Of a stretch of 44,575 nucleotides of DNA, positions 372 to 22,362 are shown in pieces. The stretch comes from an uncultured Pseudomonadota bacterium (lineage in GTDB: Bacteria; SAR324; XYD2-FULL-50-16), in contig CAZLTI010000001.1 of the NCBI GenBank assembly GCA_964562335.1, positions 1-44,575 on the forward strand, given 5' to 3'. Each line of letters begins with the position of its first letter. The stretch's first letter is position 1. Position numbers and translations under genes: made by a program. Under the pieces are notes generated by a model that searched no databases, was not told where the DNA came from, and saw only the letters and a program-made list of their open reading frames with translations.

Positions 372-3852
<3,481 letters not shown>

Positions 3853-3856
<4 letters not shown>

Positions 3857-4983
3857 TTGATGTCGATAGGCATCAATATGGTTTTGAAGTTCTTCCACTC
3901 CTCGCAGAAAATGGAAAGGGGCAATGTGGACTCGGACAGATTGATGAGAATATGGTCGTCCGGACTCGAATCGAAAGCGGTCAATGCCTCCAACAGAAAG
4001 CGAACGTTGAGAGCCGTCTTGATCTCTTTTCCCGTATAGTCGCAGGAGATTTCATTGTCGCTCTCGCCGGAATCCAGCTTCTCGCTCTGTAGACATAGTT
4101 TTCCCTCCCGGAACGTAAGCTTGACAAAGGCGTGAGGCTTCTCTTCCGTCATTATACCGATAATCTTGATGGCGTTGACAAACTCCTCTTTGGGTATTTT
4201 TAGCGTTATTTCTCCAACACTGTCGGTCAGAGAGTTCAAATTTGGGAAGTCCGCTTCGATAAGCCTTGTTTTGAATTTGACAAACTGGGAGGTTACCTGA
4301 AACTCGTTTTCGTCGAATCCAATCTCTACGTCTTCCTTTTTGACGGCTAGAATTTTCCGTATGTCGGTTAGGCTGCCTTTTGGTATGATGATATTTCCCT
4401 TTGCTTCCGTCTCCCGCTCCAGTTCCGTGAAAAACTGGCTGATGCGAAATCCGTCGGCACCGATCCATCGAATTTTTTTGCCGTCTACCTTTTGAAGATT
4501 CAATCCCATCAGGTTTTTTCTTGCCTCGTTCTCTCCGATGGTGAAGAAGGTACGGTCGATCGCCATTTTTAGGGCATCGCCGGAAATCGATATCCGATTG
4601 GGCAATTTTTCGAATTCTATGACTGGGAACAGTCCCGAATCGACACTGGGGAGTTTTACCGTCGAACGTCCGCAGACCAAAAAGACCCAATTTTGCGGCG
4701 TCGAACTGATTTGAATCTCCGGTTCCCTGAACTCTCTGACCAAATTGAACAGCCGAGCCGTATTCAGGCAAAGTCTTCCCGGCTTGATGACGTTTGCTTT
4801 GAAGTTTCCCAGAAAGGATTTGTCGTAGTTTGTCGCCCTGATTCTGAAGTAGTCCTCTCCGTCTATCCGATTGGTTTCCAAAAGAGCGTTGTCGATGATC
4901 GGAGCCGTACTCGATTTTGGCGAAATGGAGACGATCAGCTGCAACGCTTCCAAGAAAACATCTCTTTCGATTGTTATTTCCAT
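3853..4983 (-). CDS. dnaN: DNA polymerase III beta sliding clamp
   Basis: 376 aa, the typical three-domain clamp length, immediately downstream of dnaA and upstream of recF. Confidence 0.93.
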
Positions 4984-5209
4984 AGTAGCAGTAGGTTCTT
5001 TGCAAACATTTGGCGAATTGCCATTGCAATGAAATTTTACGCAATAGGCGGATTCCGGAAATCTCCGCAGCGGATAGAAACTGTTGCGTTTTGAAGCGAA
5101 TGGAAGGCCGTTCGTTTCGAGTTGTGAAAAAGCATGCGGTTTTCAACAGGCAAATCGTTCGATGCGCACAGACGCGACACAGTGTTTTGGCGAAGCGGCA
5201 AAAAATCCC

Positions 5210-5274
5210 AAAACCGTCATTCCCGTGAAAACCGTCATTCCCGCGAAGACCGTCATTCCCGCGAAGGCGGGAAT
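5210..5274. repeat. Three tandem 18-bp units (aaaaccgtcattcccgYg) ending in the hairpin ATTCCC-gcgaaggc-GGGAAT
   Basis: Units at 5210-5227, 5228-5245 and 5246-5263, read directly. The terminal inverted repeat is at 5255..5274. It translates as the RGNDG / VIPAK pseudo-peptides seen in the spurious ORFs 4052..5284 and 5084..5335. Confidence 0.85.
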
Positions 5275-5309
5275 CTATAATCAACTGGTTTTATTGGATT
5301 CCCGTTCTT

Positions 5310-5343
5310 TGCTCAATGTATCGCAAATTCAGTAAGGGAATGA
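5310..5343 (+). repeat. Dispersed 34-nt repeat, copy 2 (tgctcaatgtatcgcaaattcagtaagggaatga)
   Basis: 31/34 identical to 1..34. An ATTCCC at 5298-5303 precedes it, so the unit is bracketed by ATTCCC...GGGAAT. Confidence 0.8.
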
Positions 5344-5356
5344 AAGTGCGTGCAAT

Positions 5357-6706
5357 TCAAGACAATTCCTTCAAAATCGTGCCGATTGTCTGTTTTATTT
5401 CCGGGTCGACTTCGATCCATTCTTTGGTTTTCTTGTAGGCCTGCAGCACCGTAGTATGGTTCTTTCCCCCGAAATGCCTGGCGATAACGGGATAGGAGAG
5501 TCCCGTGATCTCCCTTGATATGTACATGGCGATCTGCCGGGACTTGGAAATCTCCTTGTCTCTGCGGTCGGACAGAATATCGGATACTTTCACCTCGAAT
5601 TTTTTGCTGACCGCTTTGATGGCATTTTCGATCGTTTTGGGATTTCGCTCTATGTCCAGCACCTCTTTCAGTTTTCTTTTCGTCAGTTCGAGCGTAATTT
5701 CCTGGTTCATCAAAGACCAGCTGGCCTCCAACTGAACCAGTATTCCCAAGATGTCGCGAACGTTGTTTTTGACCGACGTTGCAATCAACGTGACGATCTC
5801 CTTTTGAAGGGGGAGTTCCATTTTCTCCACCCTACTTCTGATAATTGCGACTCTTGTCTCGAAATCGGGCCTTTCGATTCTGGCGACCATGCCGGAATTG
5901 AAACGGTTGACCAGCCTCTCCTCCAGATTCTTGATTTCTCTTGGATATCGGTCTGCCGTTAGAATGATCTGCTTTCGGTTTTGGATCAGTTCGTTGAAAA
6001 TGTGAAAGAACTCCTCCTGCGTACTTTCCTTATTTTCCAGGAATTGGATGTCGTCGACCAACAGAAGATCCACGGTGCGATACTTGTCCCGTACCTGCTG
6101 GCCCTTTCTGAATCTGATGCCGTTGATAACCTCGTTCGTAAACTCCTCGGAATTGGTATAGCGGATTTTTAGATGGGAAGAGGTCCGATGGGCTCTATTG
6201 CCGACGGCTTGAACCAGGTGCGTTTTTCCCAGGCCGACGTCGCCGCAGATGAAAAGCGGATTGTACTTGTTTTCCAAAACGTTGTCGCTAACCGCCTGTG
6301 CGGCCGCGTATGCTATGTTGCTGTTGCTTCCGTTGACGAAACTTCGAAAGTTGAGTTGGGGGTTGAGGCCGTTTTCGACGTTTCTCTCCCTGATCTCTCC
6401 TTCCGGCGGGGTTGTTGGCAGTTTGTCGTCCGGTTTCTTCTCTATTTGCAGGATGAGTTGAAAGTCCCCGTTCAGACCGGAGTCGGCGAAGACGTTTTCG
6501 ATATGGTCGTGAATCAGTTGATGGTGATGATCCTTAATCCAGTTGCAGAAAAATCGGTTGACTCCCCCTATTACCACTCGATCCGGTTGGATACTGACGA
6601 GCGTCAGTTTGTTCACCCACGCTTCGATTTCATCCGCTTCGAGAACGTTCGTCAGCAGCTCTATAACCCTGTTCCAGTTGTCTTTCCGATCGTTCGGTTT
6701 TATCAT
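5357..6706 (-). CDS. dnaA: Chromosomal replication initiator DnaA
   Basis: Walker A GDVGLGKTHLVQAVGN, Walker B LLLVDDIQFL, and C-terminal DNA-binding helix RQIAMYISREITGLSYPVIARHFGGKNHTTVLQAYKK. Confidence 0.97.
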   Translation of the reverse strand: MIKPNDRKDNWNRVIELLTNVLEADEIEAWVNKLTLVSIQPDRVVIGGVNRFFCNWIKDHHHQLIHDHIENVFADSGLNGDFQLILQIEKKPDDKLPTTPPEGEIRERNVENGLNPQLNFRSFVNGSNSNIAYAAAQAVSDNVLENKYNPLFICGDVGLGKTHLVQAVGNRAHRTSSHLKIRYTNSEEFTNEVINGIRFRKGQQVRDKYRTVDLLLVDDIQFLENKESTQEEFFHIFNELIQNRKQIILTADRYPREIKNLEERLVNRFNSGMVARIERPDFETRVAIIRSRVEKMELPLQKEIVTLIATSVKNNVRDILGILVQLEASWSLMNQEITLELTKRKLKEVLDIERNPKTIENAIKAVSKKFEVKVSDILSDRRDKEISKSRQIAMYISREITGLSYPVIARHFGGKNHTTVLQAYKKTKEWIEVDPEIKQTIGTILKELS

Positions 6707-17981: not shown

Positions 17982-18734
17982 ATGCCCCAAGCAATGGAAA
18001 CGCAAAAAATCTACGACGGCTTGAAGGAAACCTTCCCGGAGGAGCAGGCACACAGTCTCTCCCTGATGCTTGCGCAGGCGGTGGAAAGAACCGTCGATCG
18101 CCTGTCTGCCGACACGAACAGTAAAGATCTCGATCACAAAATAGCCCAGATACGAAAGGATATCAAAGAGCTAGATTATAAGATAGCCCAATTGCGGAAA
18201 GATGGCGAGGAGTTTGCGGCCGAGACCAAAAGGGAGATCGAAAAGCTTAGATCCGAGACCAAAAAGGAGATCGAAAAATTTAAATCCGAAGTCAAACAAG
18301 ATATCGAACAGCTTAAATCCGAAGTCAAACAAGATATCGAACAGCTTAAATCCGAAGTCAAACGGGATATCAAAGAGCTTGCGGCCGAGACCAAAAGGGA
18401 GATCGAAAAGCTTAGATCCGAGACCAAAAGGGAGATCGAAAAATTTAAATCCGAAGTCAAACAAGATATCGAAAAGCTTAGATCCGAGACCAAGCAAGAT
18501 ATCGAAAAGCTTAGATCCGAGACCAAGCAAGATATTGAAAATCTCAGATCCGAAATCAAACGGGATATCAAAGAGCTTGCGGCCGAGACCAAAAAGGATA
18601 TCAAAGAGCTCGATCATAGAATCGTCCGGCTCGAGGTGAAAATAGAGCAGATCAAAACCGATATACTGAAATGGGTGGGAGGTTTGTTGTTGGCACAGAC
18701 GGGAGTTATTGCCGCACTGGTCAAACTGCTGTAG
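17982..18734 (+). CDS. DUF1640-like coiled-coil protein with C-terminal membrane anchor, expanded by 11-residue repeats
   Basis: The C-terminus DILKWVGGLLLAQTGVIAALVKLL and an N-terminal helical region resemble the DUF1640/CCDC90 pattern as I recall it. The centre consists of 12 hendecad repeats. Confidence 0.75.
   Translation: MPQAMETQKIYDGLKETFPEEQAHSLSLMLAQAVERTVDRLSADTNSKDLDHKIAQIRKDIKELDYKIAQLRKDGEEFAAETKREIEKLRSETKKEIEKFKSEVKQDIEQLKSEVKQDIEQLKSEVKRDIKELAAETKREIEKLRSETKREIEKFKSEVKQDIEKLRSETKQDIEKLRSETKQDIENLRSEIKRDIKELAAETKKDIKELDHRIVRLEVKIEQIKTDILKWVGGLLLAQTGVIAALVKLL
18216..18611 (+). repeat. Twelve contiguous in-frame 33-bp tandem repeats (consensus peptide [RK]SE[TV]K[QRK][DE]IE[KQ]L)
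   Basis: Read directly as AAETKREIEKL, RSETKKEIEKF, KSEVKQDIEQL (x2), KSEVKRDIKEL, AAETKREIEKL, RSETKREIEKF, KSEVKQDIEKL, RSETKQDIEKL, RSETKQDIENL, RSEIKRDIKEL, AAETKKDIKEL. Confidence 0.95.
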
Positions 18735-18896
18735 TCTCCGCCGGAAAGAAAGCCTGTCTCCTCCGCCTGTCGTCTCTTTTCCCTCTTTTGCAAAGAAGGA
18801 ACACCCCCTCCTCGAATACTCTCCTCCGTTTTTTTGGATATTTTTTCATAGGTGTTTAGGAGCGTTTTCCCGACCTCCTTGGTCTTCGCTATCGCT

Positions 18897-19235
18897 CTAC
18901 TCTTCCGGTATCGTGAGGCCGAAAATGCTGTCGATGGGGAGCGAGACCAAAAAGCCCGGAGCCTTTCCCTCTTCGTCCCGCCCAAGATTGTCGAGTACTT
19001 CGGCCATACCTTGAACCATTTTCTCGTTGGTGACGGCAAGTATGATCTTTTTGTTCGGGCTGCTTCCGGCAAAGGCGTCCCGCAGTCCGGCGAAAATGGG
19101 GATGTTTTGGGAAACGATGTGTCCCATCCCGACCGAATCGATCACGGTGGCTCCGGAAAGACCGATTTCCAGGAAAAGCGAGAGAATCTCCTCCAGATAT
19201 TCCATTTTGTTTAGAAACAGGATAGCAAGTCTCAT
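18897..19235 (-). CDS. Small GlnB/PII-like superfamily protein (putative signalling subunit)
   Basis: 112 aa with a beta-alpha-beta-like pattern. GLSGATVIDSVGMGH is followed by a loop and a second half (KIILAVTNEKMVQGMAEVL...GFLVSLPIDSIFGL). It overlaps the EIIA gene stop by 4 nt. Confidence 0.5.
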   Translation of the reverse strand: MRLAILFLNKMEYLEEILSLFLEIGLSGATVIDSVGMGHIVSQNIPIFAGLRDAFAGSSPNKKIILAVTNEKMVQGMAEVLDNLGRDEEGKAPGFLVSLPIDSIFGLTIPEE

Positions 19236-19714
19236 TTTGTCGTTCCCTGAGAATCGATACTTTTTTCATAGGCTTCGAATTCGTCGATCACCTCCTCCGT
19301 CGTTTGGGCCCGCAGCAGTCGTTGCGCAAGCCCCCCTTTCAGCAGAATGCGCGAAAGTTTGGCCAATGTCTTCAACTGCAGCCCCACGTCGTCCTTTGGG
19401 AAGAGTATGAGAAAAACCAGTTTGACGGGTTTTTTGTCCAGCGATTCGAAATTCGTCCCTTCCCGCAGCAATCCCAAGGCAATGCAGATTTCGCGACAGC
19501 TATCCAGACGCGCATGGGGGATAGCCACCCCCCTGCCAATGCCGGTGGAGAGCACGCCTTCCCGTTGATACAGGCCTTCGATGGCCTCTTCCGCATCGAT
19601 CTCGGGATGGAATTTCAGCAGCAACTTGGCCAGTTCGCGAATCACATCTTTTTTGTCGCAACCCGGCACATCGATGCGAACGCATTCCTTTTTTAAAAAG
19701 TCGATGATTTGCAT
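19232..19714 (-). CDS. PTS EIIA domain protein, nitrogen/fructose type (PtsN-like)
   Basis: STGIGRGVAIPHARL with the phosphorylatable His, and VKLVFLILFP. 160 aa and stand-alone. Confidence 0.85.
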   Translation of the reverse strand: MQIIDFLKKECVRIDVPGCDKKDVIRELAKLLLKFHPEIDAEEAIEGLYQREGVLSTGIGRGVAIPHARLDSCREICIALGLLREGTNFESLDKKPVKLVFLILFPKDDVGLQLKTLAKLSRILLKGGLAQRLLRAQTTEEVIDEFEAYEKSIDSQGTTK

Positions 19715-19741
19715 GGCAGCCCCAAATGTTGTCCGTTGCGT

Positions 19742-20956
19742 CTATGATTTCGGGAGTTGTTTCGGCCTGCGGTCTTTGAATTGGGCCAGGATCAAACGGG
19801 GAGCGATCAATTCGTTTACGACTACCGAAAGGATAACGACCGTAATGAGAAAGTCGGCAATCTCGCTATGCAGCAGCCGAAAGCTGACGATAATGGCAAT
19901 TCCCAATCCCCCTTCGGAGAGAAGTCCCAATCCGATGGACGGAGGCAGGGCGTAAATCGGTCTGTAGATGCGAGTCGCCCAGTAGGTCCCTGCCAGTTTG
20001 CCCGTAAGCCTGACGATCCAGTAAACCGAGGCGAACAGTAGACTTTTGTCGAATGCAAAATTCCAGCCTGCGCCGACCAGAAGCAGGAGTATGATGTAGA
20101 TCGACTTTTCTGCCGTAATGGCGGTTGTAAGCGCTCTCACTCTATGGCGGCAGAAGTTGGCCGTAATCAGGCCGCAAATCAGTCCCGATATCAGTGGAGG
20201 ATGGTGGATTTGAAACGCCAGTCCGCCACTGAACATCACCGTTCCCACCACAAATAGTAGAAATTCCGCTTGTGTGAACTTCGTGTTGCTGATGACGATC
20301 AGTATCGACGCCGGAACCGCTCCCATCAGTATTGTTGCCAGGAGCCAGCGGAACGAGAGGAGAATGTCGGGTTCCGCGTGGCTTTGGCTCGGCAAAACGC
20401 ATAGGGCGATACTGAAAAACAGCAGAGCGAATATTCCGTCCACACTGGAGATATAGCGCAGCAGGTCGATCGGACCTCTGTTCCTGAAGTGGTAGTTTTG
20501 GTTTACGATGGCGATGGCCGACTGTGCGCTGCAGGATCCTACGCAGCCCAAAACGATGGAGGAGAGAATCGAGAGCGGCAGCGGAAGCGGCAGGAAAAAA
20601 TCGAGGAAAAAAAAGGTGGATGTCGCTACGATCAGGAAAGTGGTCGTTGACTCTACGGCGGTGATGGCAAAGTAGGATCGCGGCAGGTTGCGCAGTAGTC
20701 GAAATTCGAACTGAAGTCCAAACAGAAAGCCGATCCAGGCGAGTCCGAACAGCAGGAACGGCTTCAGGGCATCCAAAGATTCCGCGTCTATCAGGTCGAG
20801 TCCCTTTGTTCCCAGGATAGCGCCGATAAATATGTATTCGATGCCGGTCAGCAAGATGTTTCTGAAACCGATGGGAAGCCTGCGGTTCAGAAAGGTTACG
20901 CGCGTTCCGATCAAAGCAATAATCGCAATGACGACAATGGCGAACAGAAATTTCAT
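19742..20956 (-). CDS. Cation:proton antiporter (Na_H_Exchanger / CPA family)
   Basis: About 404 aa and highly hydrophobic, with multi-TM segments throughout. The start is chosen at MKFLFAIVVIAII. The 54 residues upstream in the ORF are basic and non-membrane. Confidence 0.8.
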   Translation of the reverse strand: MKFLFAIVVIAIIALIGTRVTFLNRRLPIGFRNILLTGIEYIFIGAILGTKGLDLIDAESLDALKPFLLFGLAWIGFLFGLQFEFRLLRNLPRSYFAITAVESTTTFLIVATSTFFFLDFFLPLPLPLSILSSIVLGCVGSCSAQSAIAIVNQNYHFRNRGPIDLLRYISSVDGIFALLFFSIALCVLPSQSHAEPDILLSFRWLLATILMGAVPASILIVISNTKFTQAEFLLFVVGTVMFSGGLAFQIHHPPLISGLICGLITANFCRHRVRALTTAITAEKSIYIILLLLVGAGWNFAFDKSLLFASVYWIVRLTGKLAGTYWATRIYRPIYALPPSIGLGLLSEGGLGIAIIVSFRLLHSEIADFLITVVILSVVVNELIAPRLILAQFKDRRPKQLPKS

Positions 20957-21342
20957 AAAGTGCTCGGCAAATGTCCGCCGAAAGCGGGAATGGATACTCC
21001 GTTTTTTTGCAGGCGGCTTTTGCACTAGGCTTAGCAGAACGGAAACAAAGCTCCAATGGCGAATTGTATCTATGGAGCTTTTTGGCTTGCGGTGGGATGT
21101 GCGGAGGCGGGAACGCAAAGGGGGGGAGCCAAATCCGCACTTGAATTACGGCATTATTGAATTGCGCGACAGGGTTTGTTCGGTCTACTAAAAAGAGTCG
21201 TTCCGTCGATTTGCAGAGCCGTTTCGACGTTATGCCGGGGCCTGCCTGCGCTGGAACGGCACAACAGTATCGACGATAGCACAGCAGCGTATCGAGTTTT
21301 TTCGGAGATGCCGAACCTGATAAAAGCAGAAACGGACGGAAC

Positions 21343-22362
21343 ATGAAACGGAAGATGATCGACTTGAGGAGCGATACGGTTACGAGACCCTCTCTCAAGA
21401 TGAGAGCTGCCATGGCGGAGGCGGAAGTTGGCGACGATGTGTACGGAGAGGACCCGACGGTGAATCGGCTGGAGGAAAAGGCGGCACAAATGCTGGGAAA
21501 GGAGGCATCGATTTTTGTCGGCAGCGGAACGCAGAGCAATCTGCTGGCCCTGCTATGCCACTGCGAAAGGGGCGACGAATATCTCGTCGGCCAAGAGGCG
21601 CATACCTACAAATACGAAGCCGGCGGAGCGGCCGTGCTGGGCAGTATTCAACCGCAGCCGCTTGAAGTCGAATCGGACGGCACACTGGACTTGCAAAGGG
21701 TCGAACGGTACGTGAAATCGGACGACTTCCATTTTGCCAGAACCAAGTTGCTCTGTCTGGAAAACACCTATTGGGGAAGGGCGCTGCCTATGCGCTATCT
21801 GGAAGAGGCGCATGCCTTTGCCGCCAGGCATGGAATCGGCATCCATTTGGACGGTGCCAGAGTATTCAATGCCGCCGTGAAACTGAAGGTGTCGGCTGCG
21901 GAAATCGCACGGTACTTCGATTCCGTTTCCGTCTGCCTATCGAAAGGGTTGGGTGCGCCCATCGGTTCGGTGCTGTGCGGATCCTCGGATTTTGTGGCCA
22001 AGGCGCGCCGATGGCGCAAGATGCTGGGCGGCGGCATGCGGCAGGCCGGCATCGTTGCGGCAGCCGGTATTGTCGCGTTGGAGGAGCAACCAGGAAGACT
22101 CCATCGCGATCATGAAAATGCTCTGCATCTGGCACAGGGGTTATCGGCCATATCGGAGATTTCGGTGGATTCCATGCATATGCAAACGAATATGGTGTTT
22201 ATTCGAGTCGGAGAGTCCGACGCGGACAAACTGCCGCGATACATGCGCGAGAGGGGGATTTTGATTCGCGGCGGTACGCATATCAGGATGGTGACCCATT
22301 TGGATATCGCGCCGGAAGACGTTGACGCGGCTCTTGCCGCGTTTAGGGACTATTGTCGCTAA
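21343..22362 (+). CDS. ltaE: Low-specificity L-threonine aldolase
   Basis: DLRSDTVTRP, GDDVYGEDPTVN, GTQSNL and CLSKGLGAP (PLP lysine). Confidence 0.9.
   Translation: MKRKMIDLRSDTVTRPSLKMRAAMAEAEVGDDVYGEDPTVNRLEEKAAQMLGKEASIFVGSGTQSNLLALLCHCERGDEYLVGQEAHTYKYEAGGAAVLGSIQPQPLEVESDGTLDLQRVERYVKSDDFHFARTKLLCLENTYWGRALPMRYLEEAHAFAARHGIGIHLDGARVFNAAVKLKVSAAEIARYFDSVSVCLSKGLGAPIGSVLCGSSDFVAKARRWRKMLGGGMRQAGIVAAAGIVALEEQPGRLHRDHENALHLAQGLSAISEISVDSMHMQTNMVFIRVGESDADKLPRYMRERGILIRGGTHIRMVTHLDIAPEDVDAALAAFRDYCR

Follow-up and report, generated by a model that had tools for sequence, protein, structure and literature searches.

A predicted cation/proton antiporter encoded with a PTS EIIA protein and a PII-like protein in SAR324: the three-gene form of a widespread, apparently undescribed module

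Which function could bring together a membrane protein of the cation/proton antiporter (CPA) type, an EIIA protein of the phosphotransferase system (PTS) and a small PII-like protein in a single string of genes? This question is raised by a locus in a stretch of 44,575 nucleotides from an uncultured bacterium of the SAR324 lineage (assembly GCA_964562335.1, contig CAZLTI010000001.1, positions 1 to 44,575), hereafter called the window. A preliminary description, made from the sequence alone, had proposed that the three genes encode a transporter regulated by two small sensory subunits, one reading a phosphorylation state and the other a nucleotide or metabolite. We found that the window carries a derived three-gene form of a four-gene module, whose fourth gene, encoding a second CPA paralogue (CPA-B), is located on another contig. 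The three genes of the window all lie on the minus strand. The first, CPA-A, encodes a 404-aa membrane protein (19742-20956; the ATG is at 20956 and the product begins MKFLFAIV, and a longer, TTG-started alternative frame extends to 21118). It is followed, after a 27-nt spacer (19715-19741), by the gene for a 160-aa type-2 EIIA (19232-19714) and by that for the 112-aa PII-like protein (18897-19235), the stop codon of EIIA and the start codon of the PII-like gene sharing an ATGA overlap (19232-19235). Re-reading the open reading frames confirmed the coordinates, lengths and junctions previously given for these co-directional genes. The translational coupling claimed for the whole string holds for the EIIA/PII-like pair; the junction between CPA-A and EIIA is merely tight, and because of its spacer the term strictly applies to that pair only.

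A tblastn search of the GTDB species-representative genomes returned 301 confirmed relatives of the PII-like gene, and we analyzed the best 80 loci, abbreviating CPA-A, CPA-B, EIIA and the PII-like gene as A, B, E and P. The order A-B-E-P was found in 35 of the 80 loci, two of them with a frameshifted B, and 32 loci had the order E-P-A-B or were cut by a contig end and consistent with it. The arrangement of the window, A-E-P, was present in three loci, and A-B-P without EIIA in two (L024 and L035), the remaining few having other arrangements. CPA-B is within the operon in about 67 of the 80 loci, and in 74, across many phyla, the PII-like gene comes immediately after EIIA. The junctions are short, with medians of -4 nt for A-B (63 loci), 2 nt for E-P (74 loci, many of them at -4 or -1) and 4 nt for P-A (32 loci). 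When the flanking open reading frames of the 80 loci were clustered, no other conserved neighbour common to both operon orders was found, only clade-specific synteny. The cassette occurs in SAR324, Aminicenantes/Acidobacteriota, Thermodesulfobacteriota, Nitrospirales, Myxococcota, KSB1, Leptospiraceae, Gemmatimonadota, Calditrichia and other taxa, and the profile of the PII-like family matched 775 clusters of a 50%-identity-clustered library at E <= 1e-3, of which 255 remained at E <= 1e-10.

Co-occurrence was analyzed in 61 genomes, comprising the window's own and 60 relatives. The PII-like gene was present in 13 of them and CPA-A in 14, and in all 13 genomes bearing the PII-like gene, its contig also carried CPA-A, no more than about 2-3.5 kb away. 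The distribution of the module in the family is patchy, the module behaves as a single accessory unit, and the linkage of its genes is far beyond chance. Co-conservation had been named as the test on which the idea of a functional trio could fail. The trio is genuine and co-conserved, but the full system has four parts.

The fourth part, CPA-B, is a protein of ~440 aa that matches PF00999 with 78-100 bits and stands nearer to the canonical family than CPA-A does; hhalign related the two family profiles with 99.1% probability and 17% identity over the whole core. In most relatives, the 1.3-kb CPA-B gene occupies the site of the window's spacer, and a same-genus relative that retains the A-B-E-P order (L001, genome G010) carries CPA-B at this very position. 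The window's assembly (3.09 Mb, 366 contigs, 90% complete) contains exactly one CPA-B gene, on contig C5 (21736-23091, minus strand), with no module gene adjacent to it and with a product 66% identical to a SAR324 operonic B. In a maximum-likelihood tree, this unlinked B grouped with the operonic B of the same-genus relative and with a SAR324 B (support 97/91), indicating that it is a relocated orthologue and not a foreign copy. Three other A-E-P genomes each keep B elsewhere, and their B copies form a separate clade (support 100/100), which argues for a second, independent relocation. A separate acquisition and a binning artefact were ruled out by the tree grouping together with the unlinked B of these three genomes. 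As B is retained even when unlinked, it appears to be still part of the system. On contig C5 (20427-23091), an amidase-like gene follows CPA-B on the same strand, and its open frame shares ~90 nt with the end of CPA-B. Elsewhere, at L008 (4251-5466) and L031 (4121-5438), CPA-B is split over two to four frames, so that the gene is a pseudogene with frameshifts or else was misassembled.

What kind of exchanger could the window's CPA-A be? PF00999 (Na_H_Exchanger) was matched by 20 of 30 members of the CPA-A family, with a best E of 4e-18. The AlphaFold2 model of CPA-A, with a predicted local distance difference test score (pLDDT) of 82.6, has helix breaks at 142-145 and 346-349 that correspond to the broken transmembrane helices 4 and 11 (TM4 and TM11) of the NhaA fold, and Foldseek matched it to NapA, NHA2, MjNhaP1, SOS1 and KefC (template modelling score, TM-score, 0.6-0.69; E 3e-8 to 5e-6). 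On this model we assign CPA-A a predicted CPA-superfamily (NhaA) fold, a fold defined by 13 TM helices of which the broken TM4 and TM11 cross halfway through the membrane. The protein has no cytoplasmic tail, carrying neither an RCK (KTN) nor a CorC domain.

We then compared the residues of CPA-A between the A-B-E-P and A-E-P loci (group 1, 40 sequences including the window) and the E-P-A-B loci (group 2, 31 sequences). D173 in TM5 is kept in 39 of the 40 group-1 proteins and K320 in TM10 in all 40, whereas group 2 mostly has Ser and Tyr, respectively, at these positions; E348, at the TM11 break, is Glu in 35 and Gln in 5 of group 1 and mostly Ser in group 2. R316, also in TM10, is kept in 38 of 40 and is mostly retained in group 2 (Arg in 24/31, Lys in 6/31), so that D173, R316 and K320 are each conserved in 38-40 of the 40 group-1 proteins. 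The window's CPA-A keeps all four residues. D173, E348 and K320 change jointly, which suggests that they form a single functional site, intact in the window and lost in group 2. In the hhalign alignment, D173 falls one residue before the invariant D196 of CPA-B, and its equivalence to the ion-binding TM5 Asp is uncertain by one position. The degenerate CPA-A kept beside B in a whole clade, the overlap of the A and B genes and the retention of an unlinked B together favour a pairing of the two proteins. Thus, CPA-A probably functions jointly with CPA-B, and the two may possibly form a heterodimer, the latter being less certain.

The EIIA protein matched PF00359 with 110.6 bits over profile positions 2-142 of 144. 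Its GVAIPHAR motif contains the phospho-acceptor His67, which is 99% conserved among 75 PII-linked EIIAs, and R51, E52 and R122 are invariant in the same set. The domain match and the conserved His and Arg identify it as a predicted type-2 PTS EIIA that keeps its phospho-histidine, as the preliminary description had it. The label EIIA(Ntr), or PtsN, which the same description had given it, had to be abandoned. The protein scored 87 bits against the PtsN model TIGR01419 (cut-off 138.7) and 66.6 against NF008145 (cut-off 221), so that PtsN identity is ruled out by the NCBIfam equivalog cut-offs; moreover, the Enzyme I of the window's genome (579 aa; TIGR01417, 486 bits) resembles PtsP from residue 172 onward only and hence has no GAF domain of PtsP. 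Against the NCBIfam model for FruA-IIA, EIIA scored 93.6 bits (cut-off 103.5).

Besides Enzyme I, the window's genome has genes for a member of the HPr family (TIGR01003, 92 bits) and, on contig C216, for a second EIIA. Neither a PTS EIIC nor HprK (HPr kinase) was found in this genome, both absences being provisional at 90% completeness. The components of a predicted phosphorelay, Enzyme I and HPr, are present together with no sugar permease, and a PTS that has these two proteins and neither EIIC nor HprK appears, judged by its gene content, to be regulatory only. Of 30 other cassette-carrying genomes, 27 have HPr, vs 7 of 14 control genomes, and one of the three HPr-less cassette genomes belongs to a locus that is also without EIIA. 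As for the two A-B-P loci, the genome of L035 has no HPr, and in that of L024 HPr forms part of a frame of 694 aa.

The 112-aa protein scored 17.8 bits against PF00543, below the cut-off of 25. The same model was matched at E <= 0.01 by 29 of the 33 family members (best E 1.1e-6), which matched no other family. The AlphaFold2 model (pLDDT 77.8; predicted template modelling score, pTM, 0.72) has a beta-alpha-beta-(long loop)-beta-alpha-beta topology, with strands at 2-10, 30-33, 61-69 and 94-100, helices at 12-23 and 71-83, and a loop of 27 residues (34-60) between strands 2 and 3. In a Foldseek search of the PDB, all of the top 50 matches were PII (GlnB), GlnK, SbtB or PotN, with TM-scores of 0.55-0.62. 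The protein is therefore predicted from its model to belong to the PII superfamily, with a GlnB-like fold, in agreement with the original assignment as far as the fold is concerned; the profile check remained sub-threshold. A canonical GlnB or GlnK identity was ruled out by the PF00543 score and by the ligand residues.

These residues were compared through a HMMER alignment to Aquifex GlnB. In the place of the canonical Q39 stands the invariant I40, and K58 corresponds to position 61, which is variable; conservation across the family is lowest in the B-loop region (canonical T-G-x-x-G-D-G-K), and the C-terminal Arg pair (canonical R101/R103) is missing. G27/T29, G35/G37 and P57 are kept, and the base of the T-loop and the pocket's G-x-T-V motif are retained. 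As Q39, K58, the GDGK of the B-loop and R101/R103 are not conserved, the proposed reading of a nucleotide by this protein is left without sequence support, and canonical sensing of ATP/ADP and 2-oxoglutarate finds none either. No canonical PII gene (PF00543) was found in the window's genome, again a provisional absence at 90% completeness. The invariant columns of the PII-like family (F21-L-E-I-G25, G28, T30, G36-M-G38, I40, P46-I-F-A-G-L51, F55, G57 and S59-P60) fall mainly within strands 2 and 3 and the T-loop between them. The T-loop, with the motif G36-M-G-x-I...P46-I-F-A-G-L51...F55-x-G-S-S-P60, is hydrophobic, four residues longer than that of GlnB and the most conserved part of the family, suggesting that the loop that would contact a partner is under the strongest constraint.

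The strongest indication that EIIA and the PII-like protein act together comes from gene fusions. Three of the 50%-identity clusters are EIIA-PII fusion proteins. At L097, one fusion gene is flanked by two Na_H_Exchanger genes; at L099, another lies directly upstream of a Na_H_Exchanger gene, and this second fusion is present on 5 contigs, with the three places shown coming from three different samples.

Consequently, we propose, with moderate confidence, that the module encodes an RCK-less cation/proton exchanger gated by PTS-phosphorylated EIIA together with the PII-like protein. Our model suggests that Enzyme I and HPr, both of which are present, would pass the phosphate of phosphoenolpyruvate (PEP) to His67 of EIIA, whose phosphorylation state would report carbon or energy status. 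PEP-dependent phosphorylation of EIIA would alter the binding of the EIIA/PII-like pair to the exchanger. EIIA would act with the PII-like protein. Judging by the analogous systems PtsN-YcgO, SbtB-SbtA and GlnK-AmtB, the hydrophobic T-loop of the latter probably makes the contact through which the exchanger is opened or blocked on its cytoplasmic face. Other regulated CPA transporters carry RCK or CorC domains, whose place the pair would take, and the exchanged ion would be K+ or Na+ against H+. In this way the module probably couples the balance of ions and pH to the carbon or energy state of the cell. The earlier idea of a transporter with two small sensory subunits survives in the conserved unit, the phospho-histidine and the PII fold; its nucleotide input finds no support in the sequence.

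Several observations weigh against this model. On its own, the window's CPA-A has no match to PF00999 at E <= 1 and no Pfam match at all, and searching the PDB by sequence gave only a chance match for the single protein and none for the family profile, which is why the fold comparison was used instead. The PII-like protein does not have the canonical ligand-binding residues, and every proposed interaction is drawn from the order of the genes, their fusions and their conservation. PII proteins form trimers, as do AmtB and SbtA, whereas CPA transporters are dimeric, and a symmetric 'plug' is therefore not obvious for a CPA protein. In the best comparable system, PtsN binds the CorC domain in the tail of YcgO, a tail that also carries an RCK domain, whereas the window's proteins have no such tail. 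At L024 and L035 there is no EIIA between CPA-B and the PII-like gene, indicating that EIIA is not always required. Furthermore, PII-like genes of the same family (42-46% identical) at L054 and L080 (6001-6336 in both) occur without EIIA or CPA genes, and some 170 nt downstream of them begins a V/A-type ATPase operon (V_ATPase_I, AC39 and A subunit; to about 12300). At L059, in a metagenome-assembled genome of Candidatus Zymogenus, a PII-like gene stands beside the genes for the a and c subunits of an F-type ATPase, with a CPA-B/CPA-A pair on the opposite strand and no EIIA seen at the locus (380-709, 1574-2987 and 3161-5808). These relatives beside V-type and F-type ATPase genes, without EIIA, suggest that the target may exceed CPA proteins.

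Other explanations of the locus differ in what they make of the two membrane proteins. CPA-A and CPA-B could work independently of each other as two homodimeric exchangers that differ, for instance, in their ions or pH optima, with the EIIA/PII-like pair controlling one or both and no heteromer being formed. All CPA transporters of known structure are homodimeric, as established knowledge and the Foldseek matches agree; CPA-B has left the operon at least twice while the remaining A-E-P operon persisted, and the window's group keeps candidate ion-site residues in both CPA-A (D173, E348 and K320) and CPA-B (D196 and R354). However, the A and B genes overlap by 4 nt in most loci, B is kept in every A-E-P genome examined, and the CPA-A of the E-P-A-B loci has lost D173, E348 and K320 together and is yet conserved beside B, which a non-transporting partner subunit would fit better. 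We thus regard independent exchangers as possible and rather doubtful. The same degenerate CPA-A, without its charged site residues, could instead point to a reversed flow of signal, in which the membrane proteins would be ion or pH sensors and the EIIA/PII-like pair would relay their state to the PTS or to other targets, and the second EIIA and sugar-less PTS of the genome might serve such a signalling hub. This seems improbable to us, since CPA-B always keeps D196 and R354, the group-1 CPA-A keeps its charged residues, and the neighbourhood has no output domain or additional conserved partner.

A further alternative concerns the PII-like protein, which could be a ligand-free, fixed adaptor that docks EIIA onto the membrane protein and leaves EIIA phosphorylation as the sole input. 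Against this, PII-like proteins with altered pockets, such as SbtB and PstA/DarA, still bind nucleotides (PMC9974498, PMC4316997), the T-loop base and the G-x-T-V motif of the pocket are retained, and family members occur without any EIIA (L024, L035, L054 and L080). In its favour stand the lack of conservation of Q39, K58, the B-loop and R101/R103, with the B-loop region the most variable of the family, and the occurrence of EIIA-PII fusions. A pure adaptor is, in our estimate, an explanation to be entertained only tentatively. Finally, the adjacency could be fortuitous and the three proteins functionally unrelated; this we consider hardly credible, given that the gene order is kept across many phyla, that presence and absence match among relatives, that start and stop codons overlap and that EIIA-PII gene fusions exist. 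Our preferred reading remains that of an exchanger gated by EIIA and the PII-like protein together.

A broader version of this reading can be formulated, to which we give considerably less credence. EIIA and the PII-like protein may constitute one physical two-input switch, in which a hitherto undescribed branch of PII signalling is joined to the PTS, and which would gate unrelated ion/proton machines, namely an obligate A-B CPA heteromer and perhaps V-/F-type ATPases, in many uncultivated phyla. If this were true, such a switch would place cytoplasmic pH and ion balance under the direct control of PEP or energy status.

The genes flanking the string in the window are unrelated to it. Beyond its 5' end, a low-specificity threonine aldolase gene (21343-22362, plus strand) is divergently oriented. 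Beyond its 3' end, the convergent neighbour (17982-18734, plus strand) encodes a 250-aa coiled-coil protein with a hydrophobic C-terminus, built from near-identical 11-residue repeats (EIEKLRSETK.. and DIEQLKSEVK..); folD is located further along, past this gene. A promoter and terminator scan of 18600-21500 found nothing exceeding the shuffled expectation, and no promoter upstream of CPA-A. Among the other loci of the census, L072 and L078 (4940-10934), from Calditrichia, have two divergent EIIA genes with the PII-like gene, followed by a gene for a Ser/Thr kinase-PEGA protein and, 3 kb on, by one for a ClC-CBS channel; the nearest CPA-B-like gene is located elsewhere and is only 35% identical.

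The module is widespread, apparently undescribed and made of known kinds of parts, and its cassette is found in hundreds of uncultivated bacterial species, including phyla of which hardly any members have been cultured. To the known regulators of cation/proton antiporters it would add a pair made up of a dedicated EIIA and a PII-fold protein; it would also extend PII signalling beyond nitrogen and carbon transport and show a role for a sugar-less PTS outside proteobacteria, and it points to a possible heteromeric CPA transporter. From the window's copy it is evident that the gene for the second transporter can move out of the operon and yet be retained; as an example of an incomplete cassette, this copy also tempers the interest of this particular locus. 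The preliminary description could not match the combination to a described system, and we likewise found no published description of the EIIA/PII-like pair or of the cassette in the searchable literature; a preprint on PII proteins as a 'valve plug' makes no mention of antiporters or EIIA.

How does the module compare with the systems that are known? Antiporters are controlled through glutathione and KTN domains in Kef, through c-di-AMP in KhtTU and CpaA, and through PtsN in YcgO. Unphosphorylated PtsN (EIIA-Ntr) of E. coli binds and inhibits the CPA1 K+/H+ antiporter YcgO/CvrA (PMC11808508; bioRxiv 10.64898/2026.08.14.744764). In both cases a type-2 EIIA would control a cation/proton antiporter; in E. 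coli it does so by direct binding and is served by a sugar-independent phosphorelay, and presumably the same holds here. In contrast to the module, no PII-like partner is involved in E. coli and ptsN is not encoded with ycgO; the window's EIIA, in turn, lies below the PtsN equivalog cut-off, and its genome's Enzyme I is without the GAF domain.

On the PII side, the closest systems are SbtB-SbtA and GlnK-AmtB. SbtB is a cyanobacterial PII-like protein that gates the Na+/HCO3- symporter SbtA. Here as there, a small PII-fold protein is encoded beside a transporter, and SbtB and GlnK were among the best structural matches. In these systems the transporter is blocked on its cytoplasmic side through contact with the T-loop, and by analogy we propose a comparable contact for the window's protein. 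The trimers of SbtA and AmtB fit a PII trimer, unlike the dimers of CPA proteins; the residues through which adenine nucleotides are bound by SbtB and GlnK are not conserved in the window's PII-like protein, and no EIIA takes part in either system. PotN, from the pot ABC-transporter operon of Lentilactobacillus (PDB 7o4x), is likewise a divergent PII-like protein encoded with a transporter, and it is a weak match in sequence and a match in structure; it differs in that it partners an ABC importer, with no EIIA and a different T-loop.

In its overall layout, the module resembles KefC-KefF, KefB-KefG, KhtT-KhtU and AmhM-AmhT, in which a CPA membrane protein and a separately encoded soluble regulator share an operon. 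The regulators of those systems are KTN/RCK or quinone-oxidoreductase-like proteins that respond to glutathione adducts, c-di-AMP or NAD(H), whereas the putative regulators of the present module are an EIIA and a PII-fold protein, encoded with two CPA paralogues.

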